This document shows positions 3,148 through 44,097 of a stretch of 64,000 bases of DNA, one piece after another. Every line of letters starts with the position of its first letter. Position 1 is the stretch's first letter. The stretch lies in assembly GCA_038828875.1 (NCBI GenBank), contig JAWBMQ010000002.1, positions 25,314 to 89,313 of the forward strand. Reading direction: 5' to 3'. Position numbers and translations under genes: made by a program. The stretch comes from Candidatus Woesearchaeota archaeon (GTDB taxonomy: Archaea > Nanobdellota > Nanobdellia > Woesearchaeales > JAWBMQ01). The notes below the pieces were generated by a model. It had not been told where the DNA came from and searched no databases. It was given only the letters and a program-made list of their open reading frames with translations.

Positions 3148-3678
3148 ATGGTAAAAAAGGCACAACAATATATTACTTTATTCATTGCAATACTTTTAAT
3201 ATTTTTTTTAATTTTTGGTACAGGAGTAATAATTTCATCATTATCTTTACAAGGAGAAAAAATTACATTATTAATCAATAGTGATTTGGAATCTATTTAT
3301 GCAATAATAGATACACCACTTTATTTATCTTTGAACGATATATCTGATAGTAAGATATATTATAAAGATATTGCTTTAGTAAATTTGCTTAGTGTTTCTT
3401 ATCAAAATAGTATAGATTCTTTACAATATATATTTGAAAAGTATAATTCAACATTTAAGCAAGTTTTCAACGATCTTGTTTGTATAGAGCAATATGAATT
3501 AGATTCAGATGGAAAAAAATCAAATATTGTAATGTATAATGAATGTAAAAAATCAAAAGATTCAGTTTTATTGACTTTTGGCAAGTATAATTTTAAGATA
3601 TCAATCCAGAAAGAATCCGATCAAAAGTTTATAATGAATGAAGCTTTAGAATATTTGAAAAATGTACAGCAAAATTAA
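3148..3678 (+). CDS. Small pilin-like membrane protein (KKAQ followed by a hydrophobic helix)
   Basis: The N-terminus MVKKAQ/QYITLFIAILLIFFLIFG resembles an archaeal prepilin (class III) signal. It sits immediately upstream of the giant protein gene and overlaps it by 17 bp. Confidence 0.4.
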   Translation: MVKKAQQYITLFIAILLIFFLIFGTGVIISSLSLQGEKITLLINSDLESIYAIIDTPLYLSLNDISDSKIYYKDIALVNLLSVSYQNSIDSLQYIFEKYNSTFKQVFNDLVCIEQYELDSDGKKSNIVMYNECKKSKDSVLLTFGKYNFKISIQKESDQKFIMNEALEYLKNVQQN

Positions 3679-27326: not shown

Positions 27327-27414
27327 TTTTTTTATTTTTTAGATTTTTAGTGCATAAATTTTATATATTTTCTTTTTATTCTACTAAAACAAAATTTCAC
27401 TAAATAGTGATAAT

Positions 27415-28551
27415 ATGACAAAATATGTATCAGATTTAGATTTTGATTTTAGATTGTATCCGGTATTAGTTTATTTTTCTCCTTTAATACTTCCTAAAGA
27501 AGAATATGACAAATTAGGTCTAGAATTTCCAGATTCAGAATATCTAATTAATCAAAAATCATTGAGAAAGTCATTTAAACTTATGAAAAAAGAATTTAAT
27601 AAATCTTTTAAAAAAGATATTTCTGATATTGAAACATTATTTGAGAATTATTATTTTTCACTTAAAAACATAATTAATTTACCTCAAGAAATGTTATCTT
27701 TGTTAGGATATATTTATTATAAAGAGGAAGTGGAGCCAATAATTGAAGAACGAATGAAACGCTTTAATGAAAAAGTTGAATCTTATGTTTTTGATTATGA
27801 ACTATTGTCTAGAAAAAAAAGAAATGATGATTCTTTGGAGTTTATTGTTGATGAAACTAATCTAATGGAATTTATTGCATTATCAACTGATTTAAGTTTT
27901 CAAGAATTTTATTTAAATTTTTCAGAAAATGATGAAGAATCAAATTATTATTTAGCTTATTATTTGGAAGAAGAAAAAAATAAAAAAATCAAAGATATTC
28001 TTAAATATGATAACCTTGCTTATAGTTATCTTAAAAGAAAATATTTTGAATTAGCCAATATTTTAGATAAAATTGATGATGATTTCAATAAATTATATGA
28101 AAGAATGCTTTTCCTTTACAATGAGGGAGTTTCTTCTCTTAACAAAATAATGAAATTATTGCCATCTGCAGATCCTGATGCTAAAAAAATATTGAAAAAT
28201 CAATATAGTCATTTAGTTAAAATAATAGCAATAGAAGATGTTTTTTTAAAAAATTTAGAGGATAATTATTTTTCAATACAGATTAATAAAAATTATTTAA
28301 ATTCAGTCTATAATAAAATTAGATTGAATGATGATGTTTATTCAGAAATAAGTTCTTTTTTTCAATATCAAGGTTTAGCGATGTATATGTATGATTTAAT
28401 TGTTGAGTTAAATAAGAAACTTAGATGGGGAGAGAGGGATTTGAACCCTCGACACCACGGTCTTCAGCCGTGTGCTCTCCCAGCTGAGCTATCTCCCCAA
28501 AAATCTATTATTGATGATAAGCAATCATTTATAAATTTTTCGAAGAGGTGA
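27415..28551 (+). CDS. Hypothetical protein (block ORF 2); the 3' ~40 codons are the antisense translation of tRNA-Phe, so the true 3' end is uncertain
   Basis: ORF with no in-frame stop until 28551. The C-terminus ...GERDLNPRHHGLQPCALPAELSPQ is the tRNA read in antisense. Confidence 0.4.
   Translation: MTKYVSDLDFDFRLYPVLVYFSPLILPKEEYDKLGLEFPDSEYLINQKSLRKSFKLMKKEFNKSFKKDISDIETLFENYYFSLKNIINLPQEMLSLLGYIYYKEEVEPIIEERMKRFNEKVESYVFDYELLSRKKRNDDSLEFIVDETNLMEFIALSTDLSFQEFYLNFSENDEESNYYLAYYLEEEKNKKIKDILKYDNLAYSYLKRKYFELANILDKIDDDFNKLYERMLFLYNEGVSSLNKIMKLLPSADPDAKKILKNQYSHLVKIIAIEDVFLKNLEDNYFSIQINKNYLNSVYNKIRLNDDVYSEISSFFQYQGLAMYMYDLIVELNKKLRWGERDLNPRHHGLQPCALPAELSPQKSIIDDKQSFINFSKR
28426..28498 (-). 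tRNA. tRNA-Phe: tRNA-Phe (anticodon GAA), 73 nt, no intron, CCA not encoded
   Basis: Minus-strand sequence GGGGAGAtaGCTCagctgggaGAGCaCACGGctGAAgaCCGTGgtgtcGAGGGttcaaatCCCTCTCTCCCCa. It folds into a canonical cloverleaf with a 7-bp acceptor stem, D arm, 5-bp anticodon stem, GAA anticodon and T-psi-C arm GTTCAAATC. Confidence 0.9.
28528..28535 (-). promoter_or_regulatory. Putative TATA box (TTTATAAA), with a BRE-like CGAAAAA, about 30 nt upstream of the tRNA-Phe 5' end
   Basis: The minus-strand context is cgaaaaatttataaatgattgcttatcatcaataatagattttt|GGGG. Confidence 0.35.
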
Positions 28552-28556
28552 AATAG

Positions 28557-29255
28557 ATGCAAACATTAGAAGAAAAATTAGTTAGTGATGGAGTTAAGTT
28601 GTTTAAGGTAATGTATCCTTTGAATGTGTATTTAACTAGATTAACAGAAATAGTAGAAAAAAATGATTTGAAAAAAGATGAAACTTTGATGAAGTTGATA
28701 TATGGATTAAATGATGCTATAGAAAGATATGATAAGACGGTAATTGATTTCTGGAAGTTATATGCTGCAAGTTCTGAACTTTACAAAAAATATTATTCTC
28801 AAGATAAAGAGCTCGATAATGTTGAAAATTATTATAAAAAAGATTTAATTCAATTGGTAACAGGTGCGAAGTCAAAAGATTTGCCAAAAGTTATAATGTT
28901 CTTAAAAAAGGAGTTAGATTTTAAAGATGTGCCTGATTTGTATTCAATTTTGAAAAGGGATAAACTTGCATATCACGTTAACAATGCGTACATTTATTTC
29001 ATTGATATATTTGAAAAAGTACATAAAATTTACTCACATTTTGAAAAAAAGAAAAAAGATTATCTTTACCTGCCTTTAGTAAAGTTAGAAAATTCAATAT
29101 ATTCAATTTTAGGAAATGATAAGAATGATTTAAATCCTGAAGTTTTGAATTATTGTACTGAAATTGGATTAAAAATGCATTTAATTTCTCATGTTTTAGA
29201 TCTAGAAATTTATAAAAAATTCGAAGAAAAAAAGAAAAATTATATTAAAAAATAA
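28557..29255 (+). CDS. Hypothetical acidic helical protein (block ORF 3)
   Basis: ORF preceded by GAGGTGA. Confidence 0.5.
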   Translation: MQTLEEKLVSDGVKLFKVMYPLNVYLTRLTEIVEKNDLKKDETLMKLIYGLNDAIERYDKTVIDFWKLYAASSELYKKYYSQDKELDNVENYYKKDLIQLVTGAKSKDLPKVIMFLKKELDFKDVPDLYSILKRDKLAYHVNNAYIYFIDIFEKVHKIYSHFEKKKKDYLYLPLVKLENSIYSILGNDKNDLNPEVLNYCTEIGLKMHLISHVLDLEIYKKFEEKKKNYIKK

Positions 29256-29267
29256 TGCGGTGAAAAC

Positions 29268-30008
29268 ATGGACGAAAAAGAATTATCAAAAATTGTTGTT
29301 GCAATAAGTAATCTTTATAATGATACAAACAATAATTTGTACAAATATAATGAATTATTTTTTGATACTTTTTTTGAACATTTTAGAGAATATTATCGTG
29401 AGTTCATTGAAAATTATAAATCAATAACTGATGCATTAGAAATGATGAATGAGGATTATAAGAATTTAATGTTCAATTCAGTAAAAATCTTTCCAGAGTA
29501 TAGACATATGTTTGAATCAACCAAAAATTTTCAAAATTTGAAATCACTTTACAATTCAAATTCTTTAGAAGAGTTAATTATAAATAATCCTTTGGAAGAT
29601 GTTGTTGTTTTCTTTAGAGATGAATTAAATTTTAAAGAGAACTTTGATATTGAAAATAAGCACAAAGTTATGGATATTTTGTATTCTTTCCTTTCTGATT
29701 TTGAAGTAGTATATTATAGAATTCTTAAAACTGAAAAATGGATTAATCATTTAACATCCAATGGAACTTACATTTCAAGAAAATACTTGGATATTTCATC
29801 ATTTTTTGGAGAATGGCTTTATGAGGTTTATTCTTTCGATAAGAAAATTTCAGAAAAATTGAAGCAATATGAAGAAAATAGTTTAACTTATTTTGAAGAC
29901 AAAAGCGAATATTTGAAACTTTGGTTGAGAAATTATTTGTTAGCAAACGTTGACAATTATAAGGATCTGTTTTTATCTAAAAAAGAAAATATTATTACTA
30001 AAAAGTGA
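29268..30008 (+). CDS. Hypothetical protein (block ORF 4)
   Basis: ORF preceded by GGTGA. Confidence 0.5.
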   Translation: MDEKELSKIVVAISNLYNDTNNNLYKYNELFFDTFFEHFREYYREFIENYKSITDALEMMNEDYKNLMFNSVKIFPEYRHMFESTKNFQNLKSLYNSNSLEELIINNPLEDVVVFFRDELNFKENFDIENKHKVMDILYSFLSDFEVVYYRILKTEKWINHLTSNGTYISRKYLDISSFFGEWLYEVYSFDKKISEKLKQYEENSLTYFEDKSEYLKLWLRNYLLANVDNYKDLFLSKKENIITKK

Positions 30009-30062
30009 TTTCAAATTAACAAATTTTATAAATGGTTCTTTTTTTGGTAGTTTGGTGATATT

Positions 30063-30575
30063 ATGAGAGCTAATCTAGATGATTTTTTCAAGATGGACAA
30101 TTATAAAATTAGAGCTGAAATCAAGCAGTTAGATGCTGAAGTTTTGGTTTCTGCAAAATTATCAAAAAGTTTAGAAGATACAATTTCAAATTACAAAGAA
30201 GAATTATCTTATGATGTAAGATTAAGCTATGAAAAATTTCAGAAAAATGCCAAAAATTTGTTGAGTTATTGGTATAACTATAATACACAGAATGGAAATG
30301 GTAGAATTACATTGAGTGAATATTTATCTTCATTAAGGGCAAAACTTAATTCATTGTCTATTGATTTGTACGAATTAGAGCTTTCAATTTACGAAACTTT
30401 CAAAAAGCAAAAAAATGAAATATATGAATCTATAATTAGCACTATACATTCATCATTTAATTGGGAATATTTAGCTAAGAAAAATGATAAATATCTTGAA
30501 AGAGTTAAAAATGAGGTGCTTGATTTTTACTATCCACCTTTAAATGATGAGGATCTTTCAAATGATGTATATTGA
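30063..30575 (+). CDS. Hypothetical protein (block ORF 5)
   Basis: ORF preceded by GGTGATA. Confidence 0.5.
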   Translation: MRANLDDFFKMDNYKIRAEIKQLDAEVLVSAKLSKSLEDTISNYKEELSYDVRLSYEKFQKNAKNLLSYWYNYNTQNGNGRITLSEYLSSLRAKLNSLSIDLYELELSIYETFKKQKNEIYESIISTIHSSFNWEYLAKKNDKYLERVKNEVLDFYYPPLNDEDLSNDVY

Positions 30576-30637
30576 AAATAGATTTTTAAATAACAAAATT
30601 TATAAATTATGTAATACTACTACTAAATGGTGATACA

Positions 30638-31114
30638 ATGAATATAGAAAACCTACTTAGAAAATATGCAGTTGCTAATGCATACAAAAATACAATAGAA
30701 AAGTACAATGAAATTTTTGATAAAGAATACTACAAGGTAAGAAACGAAGATGAATTTTCTGATGAAGTTAACTACGTTAATTTGAAAAAGAAGACCTTAG
30801 AATTAGCAATGAAAAATTTAGAGATGGGAAGTGAATTAATACAAGTTAAAGTAAGTAAAGTAAAAAATTATCTTAACAAGAATATTGACGAGCAAAAGTT
30901 GAAAACTTCTGAAGAATATTTCGATAATTTTATGGATAATTTGATTACAAATTGCTTAGTTATGGATGAATTGAGAAGTTTAGTAGAAGGAAGATATTTA
31001 AATAATAGATCGCAATTAAACAGAGAAACATTAGACTCTATTGAGAATCTTTCAAATACAGTTAAAGAATACAGGAAAATAATAAAATCATTAATGGCAA
31101 TTGATGTTAATTAA
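30638..31114 (+). CDS. Hypothetical protein (block ORF 6)
   Basis: ORF preceded by GGTGATA. Confidence 0.5.
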   Translation: MNIENLLRKYAVANAYKNTIEKYNEIFDKEYYKVRNEDEFSDEVNYVNLKKKTLELAMKNLEMGSELIQVKVSKVKNYLNKNIDEQKLKTSEEYFDNFMDNLITNCLVMDELRSLVEGRYLNNRSQLNRETLDSIENLSNTVKEYRKIIKSLMAIDVN

Positions 31115-31148
31115 TTTGTTTATTTTTTATATTTTTTGAGGTGGGATA

Positions 31149-31505
31149 ATGAATTATAAAAATTTAGAAGATAAATTAGAGTTTCAAAATTTTAGATATT
31201 ATTCAGAAGTAATCAAAAAGAATCTAAATATTAAAGGATATTTTGACATCCTTAGGAATTGTTATTATGATGATTCAAATATAAGAAAATATTATTATTC
31301 ACTTGTTGAGGAATATCAAAGAAGTCCTAAAAAAAATAAAGATTTAGATTTAAAAATTTTTGAGTTATACAAATCAATGAATTATCTAACAAATTCAAAA
31401 AATAAAAAATCAGACATTTTAAACTACAACGAAGAAATACAAAAGTTTGCTATTGAATATTTAACTATAAAAAAACAAATTGAAAATGATAGACGACAAA
31501 ATTGA
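31149..31505 (+). CDS. Hypothetical protein (block ORF 7)
   Basis: ORF preceded by GAGGTGGGATA. Confidence 0.45.
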   Translation: MNYKNLEDKLEFQNFRYYSEVIKKNLNIKGYFDILRNCYYDDSNIRKYYYSLVEEYQRSPKKNKDLDLKIFELYKSMNYLTNSKNKKSDILNYNEEIQKFAIEYLTIKKQIENDRRQN

Positions 31506-31932
31506 TCAGCTTTATGATGAATTTTATGCAAAGATGGGAGAATTTTTTAATAGTGAAGAAATTACAGATTCTTTAGTAATTTTGCTTTCAAGAAAAAAAG
31601 TTTTGGAAAATTATATTAACAAAGTAATTGATCAAGTTAATTATATCCGACATAAAAATGAAAATTTTTATTATGATGTTTTAGATGATTTATCAAAATT
31701 AACTATTAGTAAAATGTGGAAAGTTCTTAATAATAAACCATCTGAACAGCAATCACTTGAAGAATATGAGAAAAATATTCTAGAATATCATAAAGAAGTA
31801 ATAGATTGTGCTAACGATTTAATATATTTGAAAAAGTTGATTGATTATTATACTCTTTATGATCTTTTTTGTGCTCCATATTATTTAGAAGAAGCAAAAA
31901 AATTTTCTAAACAAATTATTAAGGAGGTATAA
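31480..31932 (+). CDS. Hypothetical protein (block ORF 8)
   Basis: ORF overlapping the previous gene by 26 bp. Confidence 0.45.
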   Translation: MKMIDDKIDQLYDEFYAKMGEFFNSEEITDSLVILLSRKKVLENYINKVIDQVNYIRHKNENFYYDVLDDLSKLTISKMWKVLNNKPSEQQSLEEYEKNILEYHKEVIDCANDLIYLKKLIDYYTLYDLFCAPYYLEEAKKFSKQIIKEV

Positions 31933-31934
31933 AA

Positions 31935-32456
31935 ATGACTCTTCCTACAAGTATAGAAAAGATAATTAATGAGTATTATACTATTATAAATGCATTTCAT
32001 TCGAAGTACTTTAAAAATGAAAATTATAACTACACAAACAAATTTGCAGCATATAAGAAAATTTTTGAAAGTAATGAAGAAATATTAGATTATTTTTCTC
32101 AAAAAATTTCAGAAGATGCTAAAAAAAATATTAAACAATATAAAAAATTGCTGAATCTTTTTGATGAATTTAGGAAAGAATATTCTAAGTTTTGCAAAGA
32201 AAAGAAAAAAGTTGAAATAATATATCATAATAATAAAGAGTACAATTTAGAAGAATATTTCTATGATTTAGATAAAATTGCTTTAGAGATGTTAAAAGAT
32301 AGCAATGTTGAAGATGTTGGAAAAACGTTAAATGAGTTTTTGAAAAAGCGAATTGATTATATTGCAAAAGGTTATCAATTATCTATAATGTATTTGAATT
32401 TAATGGATGAATGTTCAAAAGTTTATGAAGATGGTGGATTGTATGACTCTCGATAA
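31935..32456 (+). CDS. Hypothetical protein (block ORF 9)
   Basis: ORF preceded by GGAGGT. Begins 3 bp after the previous stop. Confidence 0.5.
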   Translation: MTLPTSIEKIINEYYTIINAFHSKYFKNENYNYTNKFAAYKKIFESNEEILDYFSQKISEDAKKNIKQYKKLLNLFDEFRKEYSKFCKEKKKVEIIYHNNKEYNLEEYFYDLDKIALEMLKDSNVEDVGKTLNEFLKKRIDYIAKGYQLSIMYLNLMDECSKVYEDGGLYDSR

Positions 32457-32973
32457 AAAATTAAATGAACTTTATAAGAATTTGAAAGATAAATGGAAAC
32501 AGTTTGAAGAGTGGGAAAATCAGATTAGATCAAAATATCTTGAAAAATGGAAAAGTAAAGATATTGAAGATATCTATCAATTTATTAAATATCCTATGAG
32601 TTATGAGTTAATGAACCTTATTTTAGAGAAAGAATCAAAATATTATAAATTAAACGTAAAAACAAATAATGAGTATGATCAATTGTTTAATAAATTTTTA
32701 GAACTAAAAGATAAGAAATTTAAAAAGGATTATGTTAAATTTAATGGAACAACAATCTATTCTCTGGAAGATTTATTTTATATAACAAGAAATTCAACGG
32801 ATTTACCTTTTGTTTTTTTAGAAACTTCTTATTCTTTAGGTCTAAATGAAACTTCAACTATGAATATTTTTGAAAATTATTTAGAAGATTTAAAAAGTTA
32901 TTATCAATCTCTTTATGAATTCATAGATATGTTAACAAATTACATTGTAAAAAGAGGTGATAAAAATGAATAA
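32407..32973 (+). CDS. Hypothetical protein (block ORF 10)
   Basis: ORF overlapping the previous gene. A later start, e.g. MTLDKK at ~32443, is possible. Confidence 0.45.
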   Translation: MNVQKFMKMVDCMTLDKKLNELYKNLKDKWKQFEEWENQIRSKYLEKWKSKDIEDIYQFIKYPMSYELMNLILEKESKYYKLNVKTNNEYDQLFNKFLELKDKKFKKDYVKFNGTTIYSLEDLFYITRNSTDLPFVFLETSYSLGLNETSTMNIFENYLEDLKSYYQSLYEFIDMLTNYIVKRGDKNE

Positions 32974-33550
32974 TTTAGAAAAAATTACATCAATGTCTTA
33001 TCCTGAGTACAAAATGATAGAAGATAGGTGGAAGAAACATTTAGATTATATTGCTTCAAGAATCAATATGTTGTATAGTTCAATTGGCAATAAAACATTA
33101 ATAGATAAATTTTTGAATTATTATCAGCAAAGCAATGGAAATCTATATAATAAATTAAACGATCTTTTTTCTCAATATAATATAATGCTAAGCTATTCCT
33201 CAAATTCTAAAGTAAATGCAATTATTCAAGAGATAACTCAAGAAATACAAATTTATGAAAATCTAAAAAATAAGTTAGAGGAAATAACTTTTTCTCCAGA
33301 GAAAAGGTATAATTTTAGCGATATGATAAAAAAATATATTCAAGAGAACAACATAAAGAATTTTAATTTAGTAAAAGATTTTCCAAAATTGTTTTTTTGG
33401 ATCTCTAGGAAGAATAACCTAAATACTCAAGAGATAAAAGTAGGTTTAGACACATATATTTTGAAAAGAGAACAAATGTATTACAGTTTATTTAATTTAG
33501 TTGAGCTTTCTATAGATTTAGTAAAACAAGTATCCAGTAATAAAAAATAA
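32957..33550 (+). CDS. Hypothetical protein (block ORF 11)
   Basis: ORF preceded by AGAGGTGA. Confidence 0.5.
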   Translation: MIKMNNLEKITSMSYPEYKMIEDRWKKHLDYIASRINMLYSSIGNKTLIDKFLNYYQQSNGNLYNKLNDLFSQYNIMLSYSSNSKVNAIIQEITQEIQIYENLKNKLEEITFSPEKRYNFSDMIKKYIQENNIKNFNLVKDFPKLFFWISRKNNLNTQEIKVGLDTYILKREQMYYSLFNLVELSIDLVKQVSSNKK

Positions 33551-33599
33551 TAGATTTTGAAATCATAATATTTTTTAATTCTTTTTTGATATTTTATAA

Positions 33600-34133
33600 T
33601 TGGTGATACAGATGAAAGTTGGAAAAAATATTGAAAAAAAATTAGATGAATTATCTTTTAAAAGGTTAAGTATGGAATATTATAGAGCTTTAGAATTGTT
33701 ATATTCAAATTATATTTCATATAGATTTAGAGAACACATTGAAAATGAGAATATAAAAAATTACTATAATTTTGAGAAAGAAATTTCAAAGAAAGTGAAT
33801 CAAGAGCTAAAGCCTGTTCATGATATGTTTAATTACGTCAAAAAATCAATATTCGAATATCTTGATAATCCAGAAAACTTTAAAGATCCTGTTGTTTTTA
33901 AGTATTATGTTAAATCTTTGGTCAATCAGTTTGAAAAGACAAATTCTTTTTTTGAAAAACATGTTATGCCATATCTTTGTCAAAAACTAGAAAATAGAAA
34001 AGCAAATATAGTTAGTTATGATAAAGCAAATAAAAAGATATACTTTTTCTATACTAATCGGTATGAAGAGATGAACAATCTTTACAAAACAATGCAAATG
34101 ATCACAGAAAAGCTGAAAAAAGCCATTTCTTAA
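33600..34133 (+). CDS. Hypothetical protein (block ORF 12)
   Basis: ORF preceded by GGTGATA. Confidence 0.5.
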   Translation: MVIQMKVGKNIEKKLDELSFKRLSMEYYRALELLYSNYISYRFREHIENENIKNYYNFEKEISKKVNQELKPVHDMFNYVKKSIFEYLDNPENFKDPVVFKYYVKSLVNQFEKTNSFFEKHVMPYLCQKLENRKANIVSYDKANKKIYFFYTNRYEEMNNLYKTMQMITEKLKKAIS

Positions 34134-34187
34134 TCTTTTTTATTTTTTTAAGTTTTCTTTAAAATTTTAAAAAATTTTATAAATGAT

Positions 34188-34760
34188 TTGTATTTATCAT
34201 ACAGTGATAAAATGTCTTTGGATTTCAATATTGAAAAATATTATGAACATTTGTTGGAAGAAGTAAGAGATAGTTTAGTTTCTTTAGGTTGGGATAAGCA
34301 GTTTGTTGATGAACATATTCAAGAGTTAAATAAATATAATAGATATTCTTTATCAGAAGAAACCGATTTAGAATTGAGAAGATATAAAAATTTAATACAT
34401 AAAATTTATTTAGGAATGCCTTATAGATTGAAAGAATATTTTTTAGAAAGATCTGAATATGTTTCTTTAGATGTAAATAAAATCTTAGAACTTTTTGATG
34501 AAACTTATGATAAATTAATAGAATTTAGAAATAAAAAAAGAAATTCAGAATTAAAAGATTATGTTGATCAAGAAAGTAAATTTTTAACTGAACTAGTTCA
34601 CTATGGTTTAGGTATTGAAAATATAGAATCTATTTTTGAGATTATTTATTCTGATGAAGATCATCTTGATGAAAATACGATTTATGAAAAAAATCAAGCG
34701 GCAATAAGTTATATAAAAGATTTTTATTTTCCTGAATTAATTTTGAAAAAAGATGATTAA
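34188..34760 (+). CDS. Hypothetical protein (block ORF 13)
   Basis: ORF. Confidence 0.45.
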   Translation: MYLSYSDKMSLDFNIEKYYEHLLEEVRDSLVSLGWDKQFVDEHIQELNKYNRYSLSEETDLELRRYKNLIHKIYLGMPYRLKEYFLERSEYVSLDVNKILELFDETYDKLIEFRNKKRNSELKDYVDQESKFLTELVHYGLGIENIESIFEIIYSDEDHLDENTIYEKNQAAISYIKDFYFPELILKKDD

Positions 34761-34762
34761 AT

Positions 34763-36007
34763 ATGGATTCATACGAATATAACCTTTTGAAAAGAGAGCG
34801 AAATTTAGTAGATCTTTTTGAAAAAAATTCACATTTCCTTTTTTATGAAAATTTAAGAAAAAATTTTTCATATGCTGATGCTGATAAACTTTATGCAATT
34901 ATCGTTACTAAAATATCTTCTTTAGATTATTCTCTTCTTTTAGAGCTTAAAGCAGGAATAGAAGATAAGATTAATGATTATTACAACAATAGACAAATCT
35001 ATTCTTCAAAAATTTTTGATGAGTTAGAAGAACGATTGATTAAAGAAGCAAAACCATTCCTTGATAAAATTAGAAATGAATATAATTTATTTTATAACAT
35101 AGTATTATCTAATTTAAATCATCTCAAAGATCATGAGGCTTTTGCAGAAGCATTAATAAATATGACTTTAGCTGAAATTATCACCTTAGATTTAACATAT
35201 AAAGAAATTTCATCTATGGAAATGAATTATGCGTATTTAAAATATGATGAAATTAAGAACAAAATTTTAAAAAACAAAGAAAAAAGAATTTACATTCAAC
35301 CTGAGTTTGATGCAATTTTAAATGCATCATTATCAATTTCTGATAAAGATTTTATGCGATATTTACCTAGTTTTTTTGATCATTATAAATATGTTTTTGG
35401 TTTTGTATTAAGCAAAAATTCCTTTGAAAATTTAAAAAATTCAATTCAGGATTATAAAAATTCTATGGATAGAATTTGTTTTGATTTTCTAGAAGAAATT
35501 TCTAAGAAGAACATTTATTTTTTACCGACTACTTTCGAATTGAGATATAAGACGTTAGTTCCAGAAATGGAAATTTATGTTAATGAAAGTTATTATAAGA
35601 AATTGATGGTACAGCTTGATGTTTCTTATTTTTCAATGGAATATCAGAATTATATCTTAGAAAAATTTCAAAAGATAAAATCTTTTAATCTAGAAATTTT
35701 AGAAGATAATAAACTAAATGCTTCTTCTTTATTTCAAAACTTAGAAACATTAATTAAAGACCCCATGAAGTCAGAATCCCTCTTTTTAGAACCTATCTTA
35801 AAGATAATTCAAGATGCAATGTTAAACAATTCGAATTATTCAAATATATTCTTTAAAGAATTGAAAAATCAATATTTGAAAATAGCATTTTATGGAAATC
35901 TTATTGAATCTCTTGATTTAATTCAGGATTACTTTAATTATAGTAATAAGTTAGAAAAATTCAATGATTTTTTAAATTATTTAGACAATAAATGTAATCT
36001 AAGATGA
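34763..36007 (+). CDS. Hypothetical protein (block ORF 14, 414 aa)
   Basis: ORF beginning 3 bp after the previous stop. Confidence 0.5.
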   Translation: MDSYEYNLLKRERNLVDLFEKNSHFLFYENLRKNFSYADADKLYAIIVTKISSLDYSLLLELKAGIEDKINDYYNNRQIYSSKIFDELEERLIKEAKPFLDKIRNEYNLFYNIVLSNLNHLKDHEAFAEALINMTLAEIITLDLTYKEISSMEMNYAYLKYDEIKNKILKNKEKRIYIQPEFDAILNASLSISDKDFMRYLPSFFDHYKYVFGFVLSKNSFENLKNSIQDYKNSMDRICFDFLEEISKKNIYFLPTTFELRYKTLVPEMEIYVNESYYKKLMVQLDVSYFSMEYQNYILEKFQKIKSFNLEILEDNKLNASSLFQNLETLIKDPMKSESLFLEPILKIIQDAMLNNSNYSNIFFKELKNQYLKIAFYGNLIESLDLIQDYFNYSNKLEKFNDFLNYLDNKCNLR

Positions 36008-36543
36008 CATTTGACTTAGAAAGAAAACTCAATCAATATTTTTTGGAATATAAGGAAAAGTTGTTTAATCAAGGCATTCCTGAAAAATTCATAAATTATT
36101 ATACGGATTATTTTTTTAACAAAATTGATAAGTTAGTTTTTATCTATGAAAGTGCAGAGAAAAAATTAGATTCGATTTATTTTCTCTTAAACGAAATTTT
36201 TGTAGATGATAAAAAGATAGATGACATTCTTTTTTCTTGTGATCCTTTCCTTTCAGAGTATTATTTTAGCATAGATCTTTTGATGACTTCTCTTGAACAA
36301 ATAACATCAACAAATGAAATAAATTTCAAAGAAATTAAATCAGAATTGAGAAATTATTATAAAGCAGTTACTACTTTTATAAAATGCGCATATTATTTTG
36401 ATAAAATTTATTATGTGATAAGTGATGCAACTTTATTTTTAGATAAAAGCTTTCAAAATAATGAAAAAAAGATGTACAACTACATTAGATACAATATTTC
36501 TTTGTTAAAAGAGCAATATCATAGCAAAAAATTTAAAAACTAA
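36004..36543 (+). CDS. Hypothetical protein (block ORF 15)
   Basis: ATGA start/stop overlap with the previous gene. Confidence 0.5.
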   Translation: MTFDLERKLNQYFLEYKEKLFNQGIPEKFINYYTDYFFNKIDKLVFIYESAEKKLDSIYFLLNEIFVDDKKIDDILFSCDPFLSEYYFSIDLLMTSLEQITSTNEINFKEIKSELRNYYKAVTTFIKCAYYFDKIYYVISDATLFLDKSFQNNEKKMYNYIRYNISLLKEQYHSKKFKN

Positions 36544-36561
36544 AAAATAATAAATAGTTTT

Positions 36562-37185
36562 ATGGCATCTAAAACATTAAAGATCTTTATTGGTGTAGCT
36601 GGATTATTTACTGGAATTTCTTTGCTTTTTCCTCAAACCTACACAGGAAATTTTGTCAATCAAAATCCATCTTTTAGTATTTTTTCTTATTTAATGATTT
36701 TAGCATCATTTTTGTTGATTCTTGTTGCATCATCAGAATCAGAGACTTCAGAAAAGAAAGAAACTCTTGAAAATATAGTTGATGAATCTATTGATCCTGA
36801 TTTAGAAAAGTATTATTCTTTAGCAAAAAAAATATCAGAAAGCTATGAAAAAGCAATAGTACCTAAATATGATAAAGAACAAATAAAGGTAGATCTCTTT
36901 AATCTTATGAAAGGAAATATTTTATATTATGAAGAGAATAAAGAGAAGATGAAAAGGATTTTGGATTATTTATCAGCTAACAAAGATAAAGAATTGGCAG
37001 AATTAGTAAAAACAAAGATTGATTTCTTACAGAAAGAATTAGAATATATGATCAATTACATTGATGATTTTGAATATTCTTTAGATAAGGATAAAAAAGA
37101 GATGAACATAAAAAGTAAGAGAGAAGAGTTGCTGAAAGAGTTGAATGAATATTATAAAAAAGTAAAAAGCAAGTTGCAATATTAA
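36562..37185 (+). CDS. Hypothetical membrane protein (two N-terminal TM helices plus a coiled-coil tail; block ORF 16)
   Basis: N-terminal segments IFIGVAGLFTGISLLF and FSYLMILASFLLILVA, followed by a K/E-rich heptad-like tail. Confidence 0.5.
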   Translation: MASKTLKIFIGVAGLFTGISLLFPQTYTGNFVNQNPSFSIFSYLMILASFLLILVASSESETSEKKETLENIVDESIDPDLEKYYSLAKKISESYEKAIVPKYDKEQIKVDLFNLMKGNILYYEENKEKMKRILDYLSANKDKELAELVKTKIDFLQKELEYMINYIDDFEYSLDKDKKEMNIKSKREELLKELNEYYKKVKSKLQY

Positions 37186-37557
37186 TTATTTTTTCTTAAT
37201 AGTCTTTTTTAAAACATTTAATGGAAGCAAAGCACATTTAATTCTATTAATCCCTAAAGGAATTTTAATCATGTTTCTTATGAATGTTTCATCAAGTTTT
37301 TCAATTTCTTTTATTGATTTTCCAATTGCGTAATCTAATAACATATCAGCACTTGCGATGCAAATAGAACATCCTTTTCCTGAAAACTTTGCATCTTTTA
37401 TTTTTCCATTTTCTAAAACAACAAACATTTGAATATGATCTCCACAAATTGCATTTTCTTCTTCATCACTCAAACTGTTATCAATCTTTCCAAAATGAAC
37501 TGGTTTTTGACTTCTTTCTATGATTTCGTTAAGCATATTGATTATTATGAAGTTCAT
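37186..37557 (-). CDS. Fe-S cluster assembly scaffold, IscU/SufU/NifU-like N-terminal domain
   Basis: Three conserved Cys motifs: CGDHIQMF, GKGCSICIAS and RIKCALLP. Confidence 0.7.
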   Translation of the reverse strand: MNFIIINMLNEIIERSQKPVHFGKIDNSLSDEEENAICGDHIQMFVVLENGKIKDAKFSGKGCSICIASADMLLDYAIGKSIKEIEKLDETFIRNMIKIPLGINRIKCALLPLNVLKKTIKKK

Positions 37558-37641
37558 TTTTAAATATTTTTTGAATTTTCTGGTAGTTTAACTATCTTTA
37601 AATGAATATATTTATAAAATTCCTTTGGCATTTTTAAAAAA

Positions 37642-38574
37642 ATGAAAAATCCTTTTGATGTTAAATCCTTGGATGAATTGGTTTTAATGTTTAGAGATTA
37701 CAAAAATTATGATATTAGAACCTATGAAACAGAGAAATATAGTTATCAAATAAGTGATTATGATTACCTAATCATATCTAAGAAGGATTTCAAATCAAAG
37801 CATATTTACTTTGACTATTATTTTGTTCTTCTGGATCAACTTTATCAGAATTTTATGCTAGAAATAAATGATAATGAATTTTATCTTTCTTATAACAATC
37901 AAAAAATAAGACTTGCAAAACCTAATCAAGTTATCAATGGCTTGTTTTGTTTCTTAGACGATTCTGTTTTAGATATTTTTGTTGAAGACAATGAGTATAT
38001 GAATTCCTTGTACAAAAATTTAACAAATTTGATTTCGTCAGTTAAAAAAGTGAGTGTTTTTGATCAGATAGATAAAACCATTTTTTTAAAATCTTCAACA
38101 AAGAAGAATTTGATAAACGTATTAGATGAACTTTTTGTGCTTAGACAAGTAACTAAAAAAGTATCAATTTTATTGACTTATGATGTTGTTGATGAAAAAT
38201 TTTTAAGCATAAAATATGCAATTGATAATAAAGACAATGATAAATTTTATGTGCCTTTGGATTTTTACATAAAAGAAGGTAAAGGAATTTGTAAGCAATT
38301 TTCTTTACTTTATGGTTATTTTTTAGAAAAATTGATTCAAGAGAAATATCTTCCAGGATCTTTTGCAATAGATTTAAATTATCGTGATTTCAACGATTTG
38401 CCTAGTGGAGGCCATATGTGGGTAAGATATACTTCAGAAGCAGGAAATGTTTTTATTTTAGATAATAACCATATTATTGAATTGTTTTCTTCAAAAGAAA
38501 ATAAAAGTAATGCATATTATAAAAGACCTTACGAATTTGAGGAATATGTTAAGAAAAAAATAAAGAATGTTTAA
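37642..38574 (+). CDS. Transglutaminase-like / papain-fold cysteine protease superfamily protein, paralog 1
   Basis: Candidate Cys-His-Asp triad: GKGICKQFSLLYGYFLE, ~50 aa later GGHMWVRY, ~15 aa later FILDN. No signal peptide. Confidence 0.55.
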   Translation: MKNPFDVKSLDELVLMFRDYKNYDIRTYETEKYSYQISDYDYLIISKKDFKSKHIYFDYYFVLLDQLYQNFMLEINDNEFYLSYNNQKIRLAKPNQVINGLFCFLDDSVLDIFVEDNEYMNSLYKNLTNLISSVKKVSVFDQIDKTIFLKSSTKKNLINVLDELFVLRQVTKKVSILLTYDVVDEKFLSIKYAIDNKDNDKFYVPLDFYIKEGKGICKQFSLLYGYFLEKLIQEKYLPGSFAIDLNYRDFNDLPSGGHMWVRYTSEAGNVFILDNNHIIELFSSKENKSNAYYKRPYEFEEYVKKKIKNV

Positions 38575-38622
38575 CCACTACAAGATAGTAAAATTTATAA
38601 GGAAATTTATTTTTCTTTTTTT

Positions 38623-39585
38623 ATGGATAAATTGTTCAAAGCTAAAAGTTATGAAGAGTTGGAAGATTTAATTTATGAATATCTTGATCACGATCATAGA
38701 TGCTATCAGGATTTTAAAAGATATTATGAGATAAGCGATTATGATTACCATATTACGTTTTTAAATGATTCTAAAAGGTTTGTTGAGGTTTCTTTTTCAT
38801 ATTTTTACAATTTGTTTGATCATCTTTTGATAAATCAATTGATAAAAGTAAAAGATAATGAATTTATTCTTCAAGATTGTGATCTTAAGTTGGTTAAAGA
38901 GGATTCAGTTATCAATAGGTTGTTTTATCTATATCAGATTCAAGAACCTGCACACATTTATATTGAGGACAACGATTACATGAATAAAATCTATAATTCT
39001 TTGAAAGAAAGAATTTCTAAATCAAAAGAAAAATCAGTACTTCAAGAGATTGACAAAACAATTCATCTTAAAGAGCAAACGAAGAACAATTTAGAAGATC
39101 TTTTAATTCATGAACTGAATATTCTCAATAATGTTAGATTAACAGTATTGGAACATTTAAGATATGATTATTTTAAAGAAAATCAAATTGCAAAAATCAA
39201 ATCAAAAAATAGAAAAATTATTGTTGAAAAACCTTATGTGTTGTTAGATGAATTTATAAGAGAAAGAATTGGAGTTTGTAAGCAATTTTCTTTGTTCTAT
39301 GGTTACTTAATTGAAAAATTAATACAAGATAATATTCTTTTTGGAAACTATTGTTTGGATTCTAACTTAGTTTATTCCTCAGAAAAACCACCTTCAAGTC
39401 ATATTTGGGTAAGATATAAAACCATAACAGGTTCAACATTCATACTTGATCAAGAATATATTTTGGAATTAAATTCAAAAGTCGAAAACAAGATGACTAT
39501 TTTTTATAAAAGACCTAAGGAGTTCGAAAGACACATTGTTGGCTTGTTAAATGCAAAATTAATGGTAATAAACAAAAAAGCTTAA
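38623..39585 (+). CDS. Transglutaminase-like cysteine protease superfamily protein, paralog 2
   Basis: GVCKQFSLFYGYLIE ... SHIWVRY ... FILDQ. Shares the N-terminal ISDYDYHI motif with paralogs 1 and 3. Confidence 0.55.
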   Translation: MDKLFKAKSYEELEDLIYEYLDHDHRCYQDFKRYYEISDYDYHITFLNDSKRFVEVSFSYFYNLFDHLLINQLIKVKDNEFILQDCDLKLVKEDSVINRLFYLYQIQEPAHIYIEDNDYMNKIYNSLKERISKSKEKSVLQEIDKTIHLKEQTKNNLEDLLIHELNILNNVRLTVLEHLRYDYFKENQIAKIKSKNRKIIVEKPYVLLDEFIRERIGVCKQFSLFYGYLIEKLIQDNILFGNYCLDSNLVYSSEKPPSSHIWVRYKTITGSTFILDQEYILELNSKVENKMTIFYKRPKEFERHIVGLLNAKLMVINKKA

Positions 39586-39599
39586 TAAAATTAACTACC

Positions 39600-40592
39600 A
39601 TGGAAAAAATTTTCAAAGCTAAAACTTTAGAGGATTTAGATCGTTTTATTTTTAGAAATGAGTCTCATGATCATAGAGTATATGAGGATTATGATTTTTA
39701 TTATTACATAAGTGATTATGATTATCATATTTGCCCAAAATGGGATTCTAGAAAAACAATAACAATTTCTAGAGATTATTATTACCAACTTTTCAAAGAT
39801 CTTCGAAATCAATCTAAGTTAGAGATAAAGGATAATGAATTCTTCTCAAAAGATCATGATATTCCTATTGTAAAGCCCAATAAAATCAAAGATAGAGTAT
39901 TTATTTTTTATAAAGAACCATTAGACATTATAGTTCAAAACAATGACTATATGCAAAATATCTATGAAAGATTAAAGAAAAAGATCTTTTCTACAAAGAA
40001 AGGTGAAGTTCTAAGCAGTATAAATAATGAAATTTTTTTAACAAAAAAAACTTATGAAAAGTTAGATGATATTACTTTAAATGAGCTTCATTTTTTGAAA
40101 AATTTGAGAGATGTAGTTAATGAAATTTTAGTTTATGATGTGAAAGAAGAAAACAAACTTCTTACAGAATTTATAATAAAAGAGATTCAGGAAATAAAAG
40201 TCTTTGATGATCTTTTTGCCTTTTTATATAATCCAACAAAAAATAGGATATCCATAAAATTAGAGGAATACTTAAAACGAGGAAAAGGAGTTTGTAAGCA
40301 ATTTGCATTGCTCTATGGTTATTTATTAGAATCATTAAGTGATGATTTTCTTTTAGCTGGAAATTTCTCTTTAGATCTGTATCTAATTAATGATTATAGA
40401 GATAGTTTGAATTTAGGTCATATTTGGGTAAGGTATGAATCTTTAGAAAATAAAGTATTTATTCTTGATCAAAGATATATTTTGGAGTTGTTTTCTAATA
40501 CAGAAAGACAAATAGGTCAGCATTATAATACGCCTAATGAATTTGAAGAATATATCAAGAGAAGAATAAAGAATAAATATTATTCAGTATAA
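39600..40592 (+). CDS. Transglutaminase-like cysteine protease superfamily protein, paralog 3
   Basis: GKGVCKQFALLYGYLLE ... GHIWVRY ... FILDQ. Confidence 0.55.
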   Translation: MEKIFKAKTLEDLDRFIFRNESHDHRVYEDYDFYYYISDYDYHICPKWDSRKTITISRDYYYQLFKDLRNQSKLEIKDNEFFSKDHDIPIVKPNKIKDRVFIFYKEPLDIIVQNNDYMQNIYERLKKKIFSTKKGEVLSSINNEIFLTKKTYEKLDDITLNELHFLKNLRDVVNEILVYDVKEENKLLTEFIIKEIQEIKVFDDLFAFLYNPTKNRISIKLEEYLKRGKGVCKQFALLYGYLLESLSDDFLLAGNFSLDLYLINDYRDSLNLGHIWVRYESLENKVFILDQRYILELFSNTERQIGQHYNTPNEFEEYIKRRIKNKYYSV

Positions 40593-41422
40593 AATTCTTC
40601 TTCTATTCTAGAAACTTCACCATTTTTATTATGATAAACTTTAACGAATCCAAAACCAACATAAGGAACAATCTTTTTTCCTTTCATAAATAAAGTTTGA
40701 TTGCATAATGTTCCAGATTCAAAAGCGTGAATGTTTCTTCTGAAGATATACAGATACTTATGATAATGTCCTGAATGTAAAATATTAGGTTTATTTTCAC
40801 CTTCAAGAGCGTCAATTAATTTTTCAATTTGATAGCTCATTCCAAATGCACTCTTATCGTTAGCATGGAAAAGTTTAATCTTAATTCCATCAATAGTAAT
40901 ACTTCCATCCATTTGTCCAAGATGAACATAATTATCTAAAACTTCTTCAAGCTTTTTTCCTACTATGATGCCAATGTTAAACTTGCTATGGTACCACATA
41001 TCATGATTTCCATCAATGCCATAAATAGTTACAGGAATTTTACTTAACAATTCAACAGCGTAATTGAATTGTTCATCAAATCCTATCTTTTCTAATTCAT
41101 AAATGTGTCCATCTCTTCCAGACATACCTTCCAAAGTATCACCGACATTTATTACAAAATCTGGTTTCTTTTGTTTAATCATTTTCACCATATAGTCAAA
41201 CATTTTTTTGTTGAATTGTTTATGTCCTATGTGAGGATCTGCAAAATAACAATAATAAAAGCTTTTGTTTCCTAAATCAATTTTCAAAGGTTCTTCTTCC
41301 TTTTGTTTAGCGTTTAAAATTATTTGTTCTAATTTATCTAAAGAAACATTATTTTCCTTCATCAATTTGATAATTTTTTCTAAATTACCATTATACATTT
41401 TAATGATTTCATCATCATTCAT
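40580..41422 (-). CDS. Calcineurin-like metallophosphoesterase, paralog A
   Basis: Motifs D-x-H (FADPHIG), GD (NVGDTLEG), GNHD and GHYH. Confidence 0.75.
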   Translation of the reverse strand: MNDDEIIKMYNGNLEKIIKLMKENNVSLDKLEQIILNAKQKEEEPLKIDLGNKSFYYCYFADPHIGHKQFNKKMFDYMVKMIKQKKPDFVINVGDTLEGMSGRDGHIYELEKIGFDEQFNYAVELLSKIPVTIYGIDGNHDMWYHSKFNIGIIVGKKLEEVLDNYVHLGQMDGSITIDGIKIKLFHANDKSAFGMSYQIEKLIDALEGENKPNILHSGHYHKYLYIFRRNIHAFESGTLCNQTLFMKGKKIVPYVGFGFVKVYHNKNGEVSRIEEEFYTE

Positions 41423-41430
41423 CTTTTCAC

Positions 41431-42339
41431 CTAATCTCTATAACTTGGAACAAAAACATGATTTAATCTTTTTATTTCATTATTTTCATAATTAACTTTT
41501 ACAATACCAAAGCCCATTGCTGCTGGAATTTTTTTATTTTTCATGTACAACGTTTGTCCACATAAGGTTCCTGACATAATTGCTACAATATCTCTTAATT
41601 CTGTTTTAAATGCTTGATGATAATGTCCTACGTGCAAAATGTTCGGTTTTTCACCGCCTCTAATACTTGCAATAAGTTTCTGAATTTTATAACTTGTAGT
41701 ATATGCTGGAGTATCAGTAGGATGAAATAACATGATTTTTATAGAATTTACTAAGATGTGTCCTTCTAATTGTCCAAGATAATTATAATTAGGTAATTCC
41801 TTTTCTAATTCATAACCTACTATAATTTGATTATTTTTCTTTTTGTAGAATTCTTTATCATGTTCTCCATCTATTGCATAAATTGGAATCTCAATTAAGC
41901 TTAGAAGATTTTTAGCATAATTCAACTGTTCTTGTAAGCCAAATTTATCCAATTCAAATGTGTTTCCTTCTATGCCTTTCATTCCTTGAACAAGATCTCC
42001 AACAAAAACCACAAAATCAGGTCTGTACTTCTTTATAGCTTTTAGCATTTTAAGATAAAGCTTTTCACTGAATTCAATATTACCCATATGAGTGTCAGAA
42101 AAGTACAAATATTGAAACTTTTTTTCAGGAATATCTATTTTAGCTGCTTCTTTAACAATATTTTTAGAACCAAGAATCATTGCTTCTAAATCTTCTAAGT
42201 TTAGTTTATATTTATTCATGAACTCAATTACTTTCTTTTTATCTTCATCACTTATCTTTATATTCTTGACTTCAAAACTTTTAAGAATATCTTCTAAATT
42301 CCCCCCCTCGTTCATTTTACTTTTATTAGTTTTTAACAT
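41431..42339 (-). CDS. Calcineurin-like metallophosphoesterase, paralog B
   Basis: Motifs FSDTHMG, VGDLVQG, GEHD and GHYH. A G7 tract lies at codons 4-6. Confidence 0.75.
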   Translation of the reverse strand: MLKTNKSKMNEGGNLEDILKSFEVKNIKISDEDKKKVIEFMNKYKLNLEDLEAMILGSKNIVKEAAKIDIPEKKFQYLYFSDTHMGNIEFSEKLYLKMLKAIKKYRPDFVVFVGDLVQGMKGIEGNTFELDKFGLQEQLNYAKNLLSLIEIPIYAIDGEHDKEFYKKKNNQIIVGYELEKELPNYNYLGQLEGHILVNSIKIMLFHPTDTPAYTTSYKIQKLIASIRGGEKPNILHVGHYHQAFKTELRDIVAIMSGTLCGQTLYMKNKKIPAAMGFGIVKVNYENNEIKRLNHVFVPSYRD

Positions 42340-42452: not shown

Positions 42453-43625
42453 TTATATCTTTTTTAAAACATCAACAAACATATCAATTTCTTCAAAAGT
42501 GTTATAGAAATAAAGTGATGCTCTCACGCTTCCTTGATTGAAGTTTAAAGCATTATGTAAAGGCATTGCACAGTGAAAACCTGATCTAGTTGCTATGTTT
42601 TTTTCATTAAGCAAAGCACTCACATCATGACAATGCAATTTTTTATGTCTAAATGCAAATAAAGCTTGATCTGGCTCAGAAATCAGTTCTATATTATTAA
42701 GTTTTGTTAACCTTTCATAAAGATAATCTCTTAGCTTTTTTTCATACTTTTCAATGTTTTTCATGCCTAATTTGTTTAGATAATCAATTGCTGCTTTTAA
42801 GCTATAAGCTTCAACAAAAGGTTGAGTTCCTGCTTCAAATTTTTGAGGAATTTCAGCAGTTGAAAAATCTTCTTTAGTTACTTTGCTTATCATTTCTCCT
42901 CCACCAAGAAATGGTGGAATTTCTTTTGCTAAATCTTTATCTATTTTTAATACTCCTATTCCTGTACTAGCTAGCATTTTATGTCCTGAAAATGCAAAAG
43001 CGTGTGCTTTCAAATTAAATTCATGATGTGGAATGTATTGAGCTAAATCTAGAATAAGAAATCTTGCTCTTTTAGCTATTTTCAAAGTTTCTTTGTTTAT
43101 GTTTTTTCCAGTTACGTTTGAAGATGCTGTGATACTTAAAATGTCTGTGTTTTTAACTTTTTTTTCTAAATCTTCAACATCAATGTACTTTGTATTTTTA
43201 TCAATTTTAACAAAATCAAGCATTATCTTTTTCTTTTTTGCAAGGATTTGCCAAGGAACTATGTTGGAATGATGTTCTAATTCACTTATAGTTACATTAA
43301 TCTCTTTTTCTTTTTCTAATAAATAATCTGTTAAAGAATTAGCAATCAAGTTTATTCCCTCTGTTGTGTTCTTAACAAAAACAATCTCTTCGGGTTTAGC
43401 ATTTACGAATTCAGCAACTTTTCTTCTAGAATCTTCAAACAATTCTGTAGCTTCTTCACTCAACCTGTACAATCCTCGATGAGTGTTTGCATAGTGTTTA
43501 AGAAAGAAATCATTCATTGCTTGAATTACTTGTTTTGGTTTCAAAGTACTAGCTGCATTATCAAAATATATCTGTTCAAAATGAAAATCATTCCTTATTT
43601 TTTCCAAGTTTTTTTCAATATCCAT
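42453..43625 (-). CDS. sufS: Cysteine desulfurase (class V aminotransferase, SufS/NifS-like)
   Basis: PLP-Lys motif SGHKM and C-terminal RSGFHCAMP catalytic Cys loop. Confidence 0.8.
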   Translation of the reverse strand: MDIEKNLEKIRNDFHFEQIYFDNAASTLKPKQVIQAMNDFFLKHYANTHRGLYRLSEEATELFEDSRRKVAEFVNAKPEEIVFVKNTTEGINLIANSLTDYLLEKEKEINVTISELEHHSNIVPWQILAKKKKIMLDFVKIDKNTKYIDVEDLEKKVKNTDILSITASSNVTGKNINKETLKIAKRARFLILDLAQYIPHHEFNLKAHAFAFSGHKMLASTGIGVLKIDKDLAKEIPPFLGGGEMISKVTKEDFSTAEIPQKFEAGTQPFVEAYSLKAAIDYLNKLGMKNIEKYEKKLRDYLYERLTKLNNIELISEPDQALFAFRHKKLHCHDVSALLNEKNIATRSGFHCAMPLHNALNFNQGSVRASLYFYNTFEEIDMFVDVLKKI

Positions 43626-44097
43626 TTTTTTCTAAAATTTCATCAACTATTTTTTTTTCATCTTCTGTAATGTTAAGATGATTATATATTATTACTCTTT
43701 CAGGATTTTTAACATTTTTGCTTTTCAAATAAAATAAGAACTCTTTGTTCAATGGTTGAATTCGTGCAGAATGTTTGGCTTTTTTTATTCCATTTATTAG
43801 TAATGCTGGCATTATAGTAGTTGATTCTTTCAACTTTATCACATCAATTTCAATATTAACTTCATCCTTTCCATAAACAAAAATCTCTAAATTGCTTAAC
43901 GAAACTGCATTTATATTTATTGTTGAATTTGTAACTTTGTTTATCATAATTCTATTCTTTTCATTTGCAAGAATGAATATTTTACAATTGTTTAATATTT
44001 CTAAATCTATTTGATTCTTTCCATAGATGAATATTTCAGCTTCTTTTTCAATCCTTAAATTTCCCTCAAATTTAGTTATTAATATTTTGTCTTTCAT
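43615..44097 (-). CDS. Short (160 aa) SufD-like beta-helix fragment, or divergent Suf accessory protein
   Basis: Repetitive beta-helix-like segments with AKHSARIQP, similar to the SufB/D C-terminal motif. Too short for a canonical SufD. Confidence 0.35.
   Translation of the reverse strand: MKDKILITKFEGNLRIEKEAEIFIYGKNQIDLEILNNCKIFILANEKNRIMINKVTNSTININAVSLSNLEIFVYGKDEVNIEIDVIKLKESTTIMPALLINGIKKAKHSARIQPLNKEFLFYLKSKNVKNPERVIIYNHLNITEDEKKIVDEILEKNGY

Follow-up and report, generated by a model that had tools for sequence, protein, structure and literature searches.

A tandem triplet of candidate transglutaminase-like thiol enzymes in a Woesearchaeota archaeon, part of it lying in a divergent block most likely imported by recombination

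A 64,000-nucleotide stretch of the genome of a Candidatus Woesearchaeota archaeon, a tiny symbiotic archaeon, carries three consecutive plus-strand genes that are referred to here as paralogs 1, 2 and 3. The whole 64-kb stretch is called the window below, and it is very AT-rich, with a GC content of about 22-32%. The genes had been predicted, from their letters alone, to be tandem copies of a transglutaminase-like protein with a Cys-His-Asp triad and a papain fold, 310, 320 and 330 amino acids (aa) long, and these lengths agree exactly with the list of open reading frames (ORFs). The genes are separated by gaps of 48 nucleotides (nt) between paralogs 1 and 2 and 14 nt between paralogs 2 and 3, and the product of paralog 3 is identical to a database entry named ‘MAG: hypothetical protein QW210_01200’, from a Woesearchaeota metagenome-assembled genome (MAG). 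The positions of the genes, of their domains and of a block that diverges from a sister MAG are as follows.

37642-38574, plus strand: paralog 1, 310 aa, putative catalytic Cys217 (nt 38290-38292), His258 (38413-38415) and Asp274 (38461-38463).
38623-39585, plus strand: paralog 2, 320 aa, putative catalytic Cys219 (nt 39277-39279), His260 (39400-39402) and Asp276 (39448-39450).
39600-40592, plus strand: paralog 3, 330 aa, putative catalytic Cys232 (nt 40293-40295), His274 (40419-40421) and Asp290 (40467-40469).
39600-39935, plus strand: predicted N-terminal β-rich domain of paralog 3 (residues 1-112), with the invariant ISDYDY inside, delimited by AlphaFold2 secondary structure.
40077-40565, plus strand: transglutaminase-like C-terminal domain of paralog 3 (residues 160-322), delimited by domain alignment A6.
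Roughly 38122-38550 (paralog 1) and 39100-39540 (paralog 2), plus strand: the equivalent C-terminal domain regions by alignment.
38880-40640 (about 1.75 kb), no strand: block divergent from the sister MAG (locus L001), delimited by a sliding identity profile.

The three proteins are clearly related to one another. When aligned, as the original prediction had proposed, each pair is 39-41% identical over the full length, with BLASTP E-values of 1e-59 to 3e-68, and a repeat scan found DNA repeats in register, spaced 977-1019 nt across the triplet, which confirms tandem paralogy. The expected common motif ISDYDY begins at residue 37 in all three paralogs, and the C-terminal motifs G(V/I)CKQF, H(I/M)WVRY and FILD were also found. 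The spacing of the presumed catalytic residues needed some correction: the distance from Cys to His is 41, 41 and 42 residues rather than about 50, while the predicted 15 or so residues from His to Asp came close to the exact value of 16. In a Kyte-Doolittle analysis with 19-residue windows the mean stays below 1.6 throughout all three paralogs, and no hydrophobic segment resembles a signal peptide or a transmembrane helix. This is consistent with the predicted lack of a signal peptide, although no dedicated predictor was run.

AlphaFold2 models were generated from a shallow alignment of four sequences, and secondary structure was assigned with DSSP. The model of paralog 3 has a predicted local distance difference test score (pLDDT) of 77 and a predicted template modelling score (pTM) of 0.78, and that of paralog 1 has a pLDDT of 64, with values of 80-95 in the core. 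Both models comprise an N-terminal β-rich domain, a helical linker and a C-terminal α+β core. The linker occupies residues 113-215 of paralog 3, the same layout is seen in paralogs 1 and 2, and the C-terminal domain of paralog 3 consists of a recognition helix, the Cys helix, the His and Asp strands and a Y-x-x-P-x-E tail. In the paralog 3 model, Cys232 opens a helix (232-248), His274 opens a strand (274-280) and Asp290 follows a strand (286-289). In paralog 1, Cys217 likewise opens a helix (217-233), His258 lies just before a strand (261-264) and Asp274 comes after a strand (270-273). As modelled, this succession of Cys helix, His strand and Asp strand is the papain/transglutaminase arrangement, and it would qualify the proteins for the superfamily. 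We also accept structural similarity to solved members. A Foldseek search of the PDB gave nothing significant. Profiles A1, A4 and A6 gave only spurious matches to PDB chain sequences (hippocalcin, cupin and cytochrome). An hhalign comparison of the domain profile with an approximate TGM2 core aligned the Cys helix alone and was not significant; we give it no weight.

Profile searches point to the same superfamily by a different route from the one first proposed. None of the three paralogs matches PF01841 (Transglut_core), the family named in the original prediction, even at E ≤ 10. The sole Pfam family matched is PF04473 (DUF553, ‘Transglutaminase-like domain’). With full-length sequences there was no match for paralog 1, 19.2 bits (E 9e-4) for paralog 2 and 18.8 bits for paralog 3, against a gathering cut-off of 20.5, and the isolated C-terminal domain of paralog 3 scored 20.6 bits, just above that cut-off. 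The matched part is profile positions 25-117 of 140, running from the Cys helix to the Asp strand. Among the domains of relatives, PF04473 was matched by 12 of 27 and PF01841 by 6 of 27 at E ≤ 1 (best E for PF01841, 4e-4), and 6 of 58 full-length relatives match PF04473 at E ≤ 0.01. The N-terminal domain has no Pfam or NCBIfam match, and an NCBIfam scan of the paralogs gave nothing meaningful. Overall, the predicted core layout, the invariant triad and a borderline match to PF04473 as the only Pfam family support the reading of these genes as transglutaminase-like Cys-His-Asp proteins of the papain fold. The triplet is a narrow new branch of the well-known transglutaminase/papain superfamily (Pfam clan Peptidase_CA).

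For the distribution of the family we relied on HMMER, with a profile run exhaustively against 1.84 billion cluster representatives. This gave 590 proteins at E ≤ 1e-3, 122 at E ≤ 1e-10 and three at E ≤ 1e-30, the last being the three paralog clusters themselves. Matches from outside the family cover the C-terminal part only (profile positions about 165-300), and in the 150 top-scoring matches the profile ahead of position 64 or so is covered by the three paralog clusters alone. Among these sequences the N-terminal β domain is unique to the triplet family. In an alignment of 58 relatives, Cys232, Gly254, His274, Trp276, Arg278 and Asp290 (paralog 3 numbering) are invariant, and the spacing from His to Asp is 16 in every one. 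The triad itself is invariant in 6/6 family members and 58/58 homologues.

The full-length architecture with the N-terminal β domain was found in two Woesearchaeota MAGs only. The second of these, GCA_038889815.1, has the same triplet in the same context (locus L001), and the triplet recurs in two Logan assemblies (L002 and L003), which match the window at 100% identity across nt 37001-41000. No further full-length member was found by the exhaustive protein search or in GTDB species representatives, JGI metagenomes and IMG/VR, and the broader C-terminal domain pattern gave nothing in IMG/VR; the GTDB, JGI and IMG/VR scans used short peptide patterns, which divergent members could escape. A word-indexed protein search recovered only proteins of the family itself and, later, a few relatives fused to FHA domains. 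Since paralog 2 escaped it entirely, its failure to find other members carries little weight.

The wider clade domain was located in 33 loci of representative genomes. About 20 of these are labelled as Patescibacteria, or candidate phyla radiation (CPR), lineages (Levybacteria, Pacebacteria, Collierbacteria, Doudnabacteria, Saccharibacteria, Uhrbacteria, Peribacteria and Parcubacteria), and the others bear generic labels such as ‘uncultured Pseudomonadales/Gammaproteobacteria’ or plain ‘bacterium’. No neighbouring gene family recurs in more than three of the 33 loci. In 11 of the 58 relatives an N-terminal FHA phosphopeptide-binding domain is fused to the clade domain (L004 6001-7314; P0013, P0158-P0161; P0152, which is MBS3140925.1). 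One of these comes from a Woesearchaeota archaeon, and in a bacterial MAG another follows directly downstream of a gene for a response regulator, a possible sign that the wider clade is connected with phospho-signalling.

Taken together, the three genes look like the product of a tandem triplication that is old and, as had been suggested, lineage-specific, having arisen in a Woesearchaeota (DPANN) lineage. Since all three share an N-terminal domain found nowhere else, duplication probably took place within this lineage, and it appears lineage-specific because members of the C-terminal clade are single copies, mostly in CPR/Patescibacteria. The roughly equal identity of about 40% between the paralogs indicates that the duplications are old.

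Comparison with the sister locus L001 reveals the divergent block. Its boundaries are sharp: it takes in most of paralog 2, from a point within that gene, and the whole of paralog 3, at whose 3' end it stops. Nucleotide identity is about 98% on both sides of the block and 70-84% inside it, with a low of 53% where a short gap separates paralogs 2 and 3. The blastn identities are 93.9% for nt 37001-39537 and 81.5% for nt 39600-41000. Neighbouring genes are 96-100% identical, with synonymous divergence (dS) of 0.03-0.25, and paralog 1 is 97.7% identical to its L001 ortholog (dS 0.055), but the corresponding values are 81% and 0.56 for paralog 2 and 65% and 0.98 for paralog 3. Within paralog 2, dS rises at codon 86 from 0.025 to 0.85. 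Inside the block dS is 0.85-0.98, versus 0.03-0.25 outside.

Ortholog pairs were also used to assess selection, in place of the comparison between paralogs that had been proposed, because at 40% aa identity synonymous sites are saturated. The ratio of non-synonymous to synonymous divergence (dN/dS) is 0.13-0.28 in every domain (about 0.2), with its minimum in the catalytic core. All three copies are under purifying selection, and both alleles are therefore functional and constrained. These figures also bear on whether the paralogs could be non-catalytic scaffolds that keep the fold, in the manner of protein 4.2, Rad4/XPC and menin. We regard this as highly improbable, as those proteins have lost their catalytic residues, whereas here Cys, His and Asp never vary in the family or its homologues and the core has the lowest dN/dS.

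The most likely origin of the block is import by homologous recombination from an unsampled, more distant relative carrying the same triplet. Recombination is preferred over positive selection because both classes of substitution are raised together. Gene conversion between the paralogs was considered as a cause and rejected: the two alleles of paralog 3 are 65% identical to each other and about 40% identical to the other paralogs. A second divergent block lies at 29600-31100 of the window (its left edge is set by the end of L001), in a region otherwise 96-100% identical. It contains two small orphan ORFs, 30063-30575 and 30638-31114, which are 79-84% identical with dS of 0.55-0.60. Because this second block falls about 8 kb upstream in unrelated small ORFs, such imports are not peculiar to the triplet locus, and this suggests that recombination imports are frequent in the lineage.

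A different view is that diversifying selection or hypermutation acted on paralogs 2 and 3, for example in a host/virus arms race, rather than a neutral import. The block does match almost exactly two members of an expanded gene family, and expansion with allelic divergence is typical of conflict loci. We nevertheless consider this improbable: dS is up as much as dN, dN/dS is about 0.2 just as in the non-divergent paralog 1, the second block sits in unrelated genes, and a repeat scan of nt 37100-41500 found no diversity-generating element. PADLOC and PHROG scans likewise gave no meaningful match, with only PDC-S05 (E 0.003, no single stretch passing) and one PHROG (E 0.04), both for paralog 3. 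To judge by these profiles, the triplet does not seem to belong to a known anti-phage defence or phage family. A more elaborate and even less probable scenario would make the paralogs DPANN-specific, mutually dependent thiol enzymes forming a hetero-oligomer or a cascade, with N-terminal domains that recognise different partners and a block that balancing or diversifying selection preserves because the enzymes take part in a conflict between host and symbiont or between virus and host. If true, episymbiotic archaea would possess a new class of intracellular effectors or immunity proteases, related to an enzyme widespread in CPR bacteria that is just as uncharacterised.

We are fairly confident in the simpler overall explanation, namely an old triplication of soluble intracellular three-part thiol enzymes with an intact triad, together with a recombined block. 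In the mechanism we propose, the His-Asp pair would activate the thiol of the helix-capping Cys, and the resulting thiolate would attack the carbonyl of an amide or (thio)ester in a protein or peptide substrate, giving a thioester acyl-enzyme. This intermediate could then be resolved by water, as in a peptidase, isopeptidase or amidase, or by an amine or hydroxyl acceptor, as in a transferase. The variable N-terminal domain would select the substrate, and for this reason the paralogs may have diverged in target specificity.

The transglutaminase/papain fold alone does not fix the chemistry. The same structural neighbourhood includes the LapG and CPR-C4 proteases, the PNGase amidase, the TGM2/TGM3 cross-linkers and the arylamine N-acetyltransferases. 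Most characterised prokaryotic relatives in the subgroup are hydrolases (LapG, pseudomurein endoisopeptidases, McjB and CPR-C4), and by this analogy the most likely reaction, tentatively and at a little short of an even chance, would be hydrolysis, the target being a peptide, isopeptide or side-chain amide bond of some cytoplasmic protein. The paralogs might alternatively be acyl- or acetyltransferases like Ceg10 or the arylamine N-acetyltransferases, with the Cys acylated by an acyl-CoA and the acyl group passed to a protein or small molecule, but we think this unlikely. True transglutaminases or protein-glutamine deamidases, acting on Gln of cytoplasmic or envelope-associated proteins, seem no likelier: C-terminal β-barrels and an animal-type architecture are lacking, PF04473 itself is a biochemically uncharacterised family, and the preponderance of hydrolases among prokaryotic relatives counts here too. 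Literature searches found nothing on TglA and nothing relevant on Woesearchaeota cysteine proteases.

Turning to the surroundings, the triplet had been placed between an iron-sulphur (Fe-S) scaffold gene and the suf operon. A NifU_N/SufU-like scaffold gene does lie upstream on the minus strand, but the triplet is not directly adjacent to suf, because two metallophosphoesterase genes (40580-42339, minus strand) intervene; beyond them, also on the minus strand, come SufS, a 160-aa ORF, SufB/D and SufC. Paralog 3 is convergent with the nearer metallophosphoesterase gene and shares 13 nt with it at its own 3' end. In a reading of the triplet intergenic regions for promoters and terminators, TATA-like AT runs turned up everywhere, at a GC content of 25%. 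The metallophosphoesterase genes (40580-41422 and 41431-42339, both minus strand) are a tandem pair of calcineurin-like proteins, 47% identical and matching PF00149, and thus a second duplicated family immediately beside the triplet. They weakly resemble the phosphoesterase domain of the small subunit of archaeal PolD and match phrog_7339, ‘DNA repair exonuclease’.

For the Fe-S scaffold gene (37186-37557, minus strand) the best model is SufU (TIGR01994, 82.7 bits, cut-off 92.5), ahead of IscU and NifU. Public gene calls start it seven codons downstream, giving 116 aa versus 123 aa for the longest ORF, and the protein is 100% identical between both MAGs. The 160-aa ORF (43615-44097, minus strand) stands between SufS and SufB/D, in the position expected for SufD, and has a faint SUFBD_core match (E 0.07, residues 104-128); it may be a truncated or highly divergent SufD. 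Upstream, a run of about 20 consecutive plus-strand ORFs of 118-414 aa fills 26358-37185, its order being kept in the sister MAG from about 29700 onward. A Pfam scan of 12 of these ORFs gave none above threshold, and the last (36562-37185) has hydrophobic, transmembrane-like segments at its start. Further away, at 3662-11611 (plus strand), is a giant ORF of 2649 aa in which a Pfam scan found no domain. Its C-terminal 600 or so residues are 23% identical (E 2e-9) to an upstream 815-aa ORF (14-2461, plus strand). Large surface proteins are common in DPANN, and this ORF may encode one.

In the tiny genomes of DPANN archaea and CPR bacteria, a large share of the genes is unannotated. For three such unannotated genes a fold and a probable catalytic mechanism can now be put forward, and since a reduced genome has kept all three of these old copies under purifying selection, their function is probably important to the organism. 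The sharply bounded tract, on its most likely reading as an import, documents directly that Woesearchaeota populations which have diverged exchange DNA by homologous recombination. The unmodelled wider clade comprises at least 590 clusters at 50% identity, mostly from CPR bacteria, and deserves a Pfam model and one biochemical characterisation. Current understanding is not overturned, as thiol enzymes of the transglutaminase/papain fold are common in archaea.

Finally, the triplet was compared with known systems. CPR-C4 (PDB 7OB6/7PJO; PMC9108980), a cysteine protease conserved in CPR, adopts a vasohibin-like fold. It is a Zn-binding homodimer whose triad, Cys61-His93-Leu115(carbonyl), is non-canonical, with 32 and 22 residues as its spacings. 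The triplet profiles picked up no similarity to its sequence; CPR-C4 is a different family, and the triplet does not belong with the CPR-C4/vasohibin-type proteases. Ceg10 (PDB 9B8D/9VMQ; PMC12773746), an acetyltransferase of this structural neighbourhood, is secreted by Legionella as an effector against eukaryotic targets; its triad residues are spaced by 33 and 12, and it is 12% identical to the triplet. TGM2, TGM3 and FXIII (PDB 3LY6, 8RMX, 4KTY) and the PNGase 2F4O are multidomain proteins of eukaryotic architecture that are regulated by Ca2+ and show 9-16% identity. The animal-type TGM/FXIII layout consists of an N-terminal β-sandwich, a core and two C-terminal β-barrels; the triplet proteins, at 310-330 aa, differ from it and end about 40 residues past the Asp with a single helix.

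Closer to the triplet is PF04473, which is family 3 of the transglutaminase-like superfamily of Makarova, Aravind and Koonin (1999; PMC10318531). Like the triplet, it is a prokaryotic, uncharacterised Cys-His-Asp family, although the N-terminal β domain and helical linker of the triplet fall outside it. The nearest sequence relatives (E 1e-19 to 1e-10) are the unmodelled CPR/DPANN clade, recognised in alignments A4-A6 by the signature GVCRHQALL...VSVDRN...GGHAWxRYT...ILDxAQ. Its members are single-copy proteins with a median of 259 aa, mostly from Patescibacteria MAGs, and they lack the ISDYDY N-terminal domain; the clade's CRHQ is replaced by CKQF in the triplet proteins, from which the DRN motif has been lost. 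In short, the two groups have in common the invariant C, G, H, W, R and D residues, a His-to-Asp spacing of 16, a C-terminal Y-x-R-P-E tail and a soluble character.

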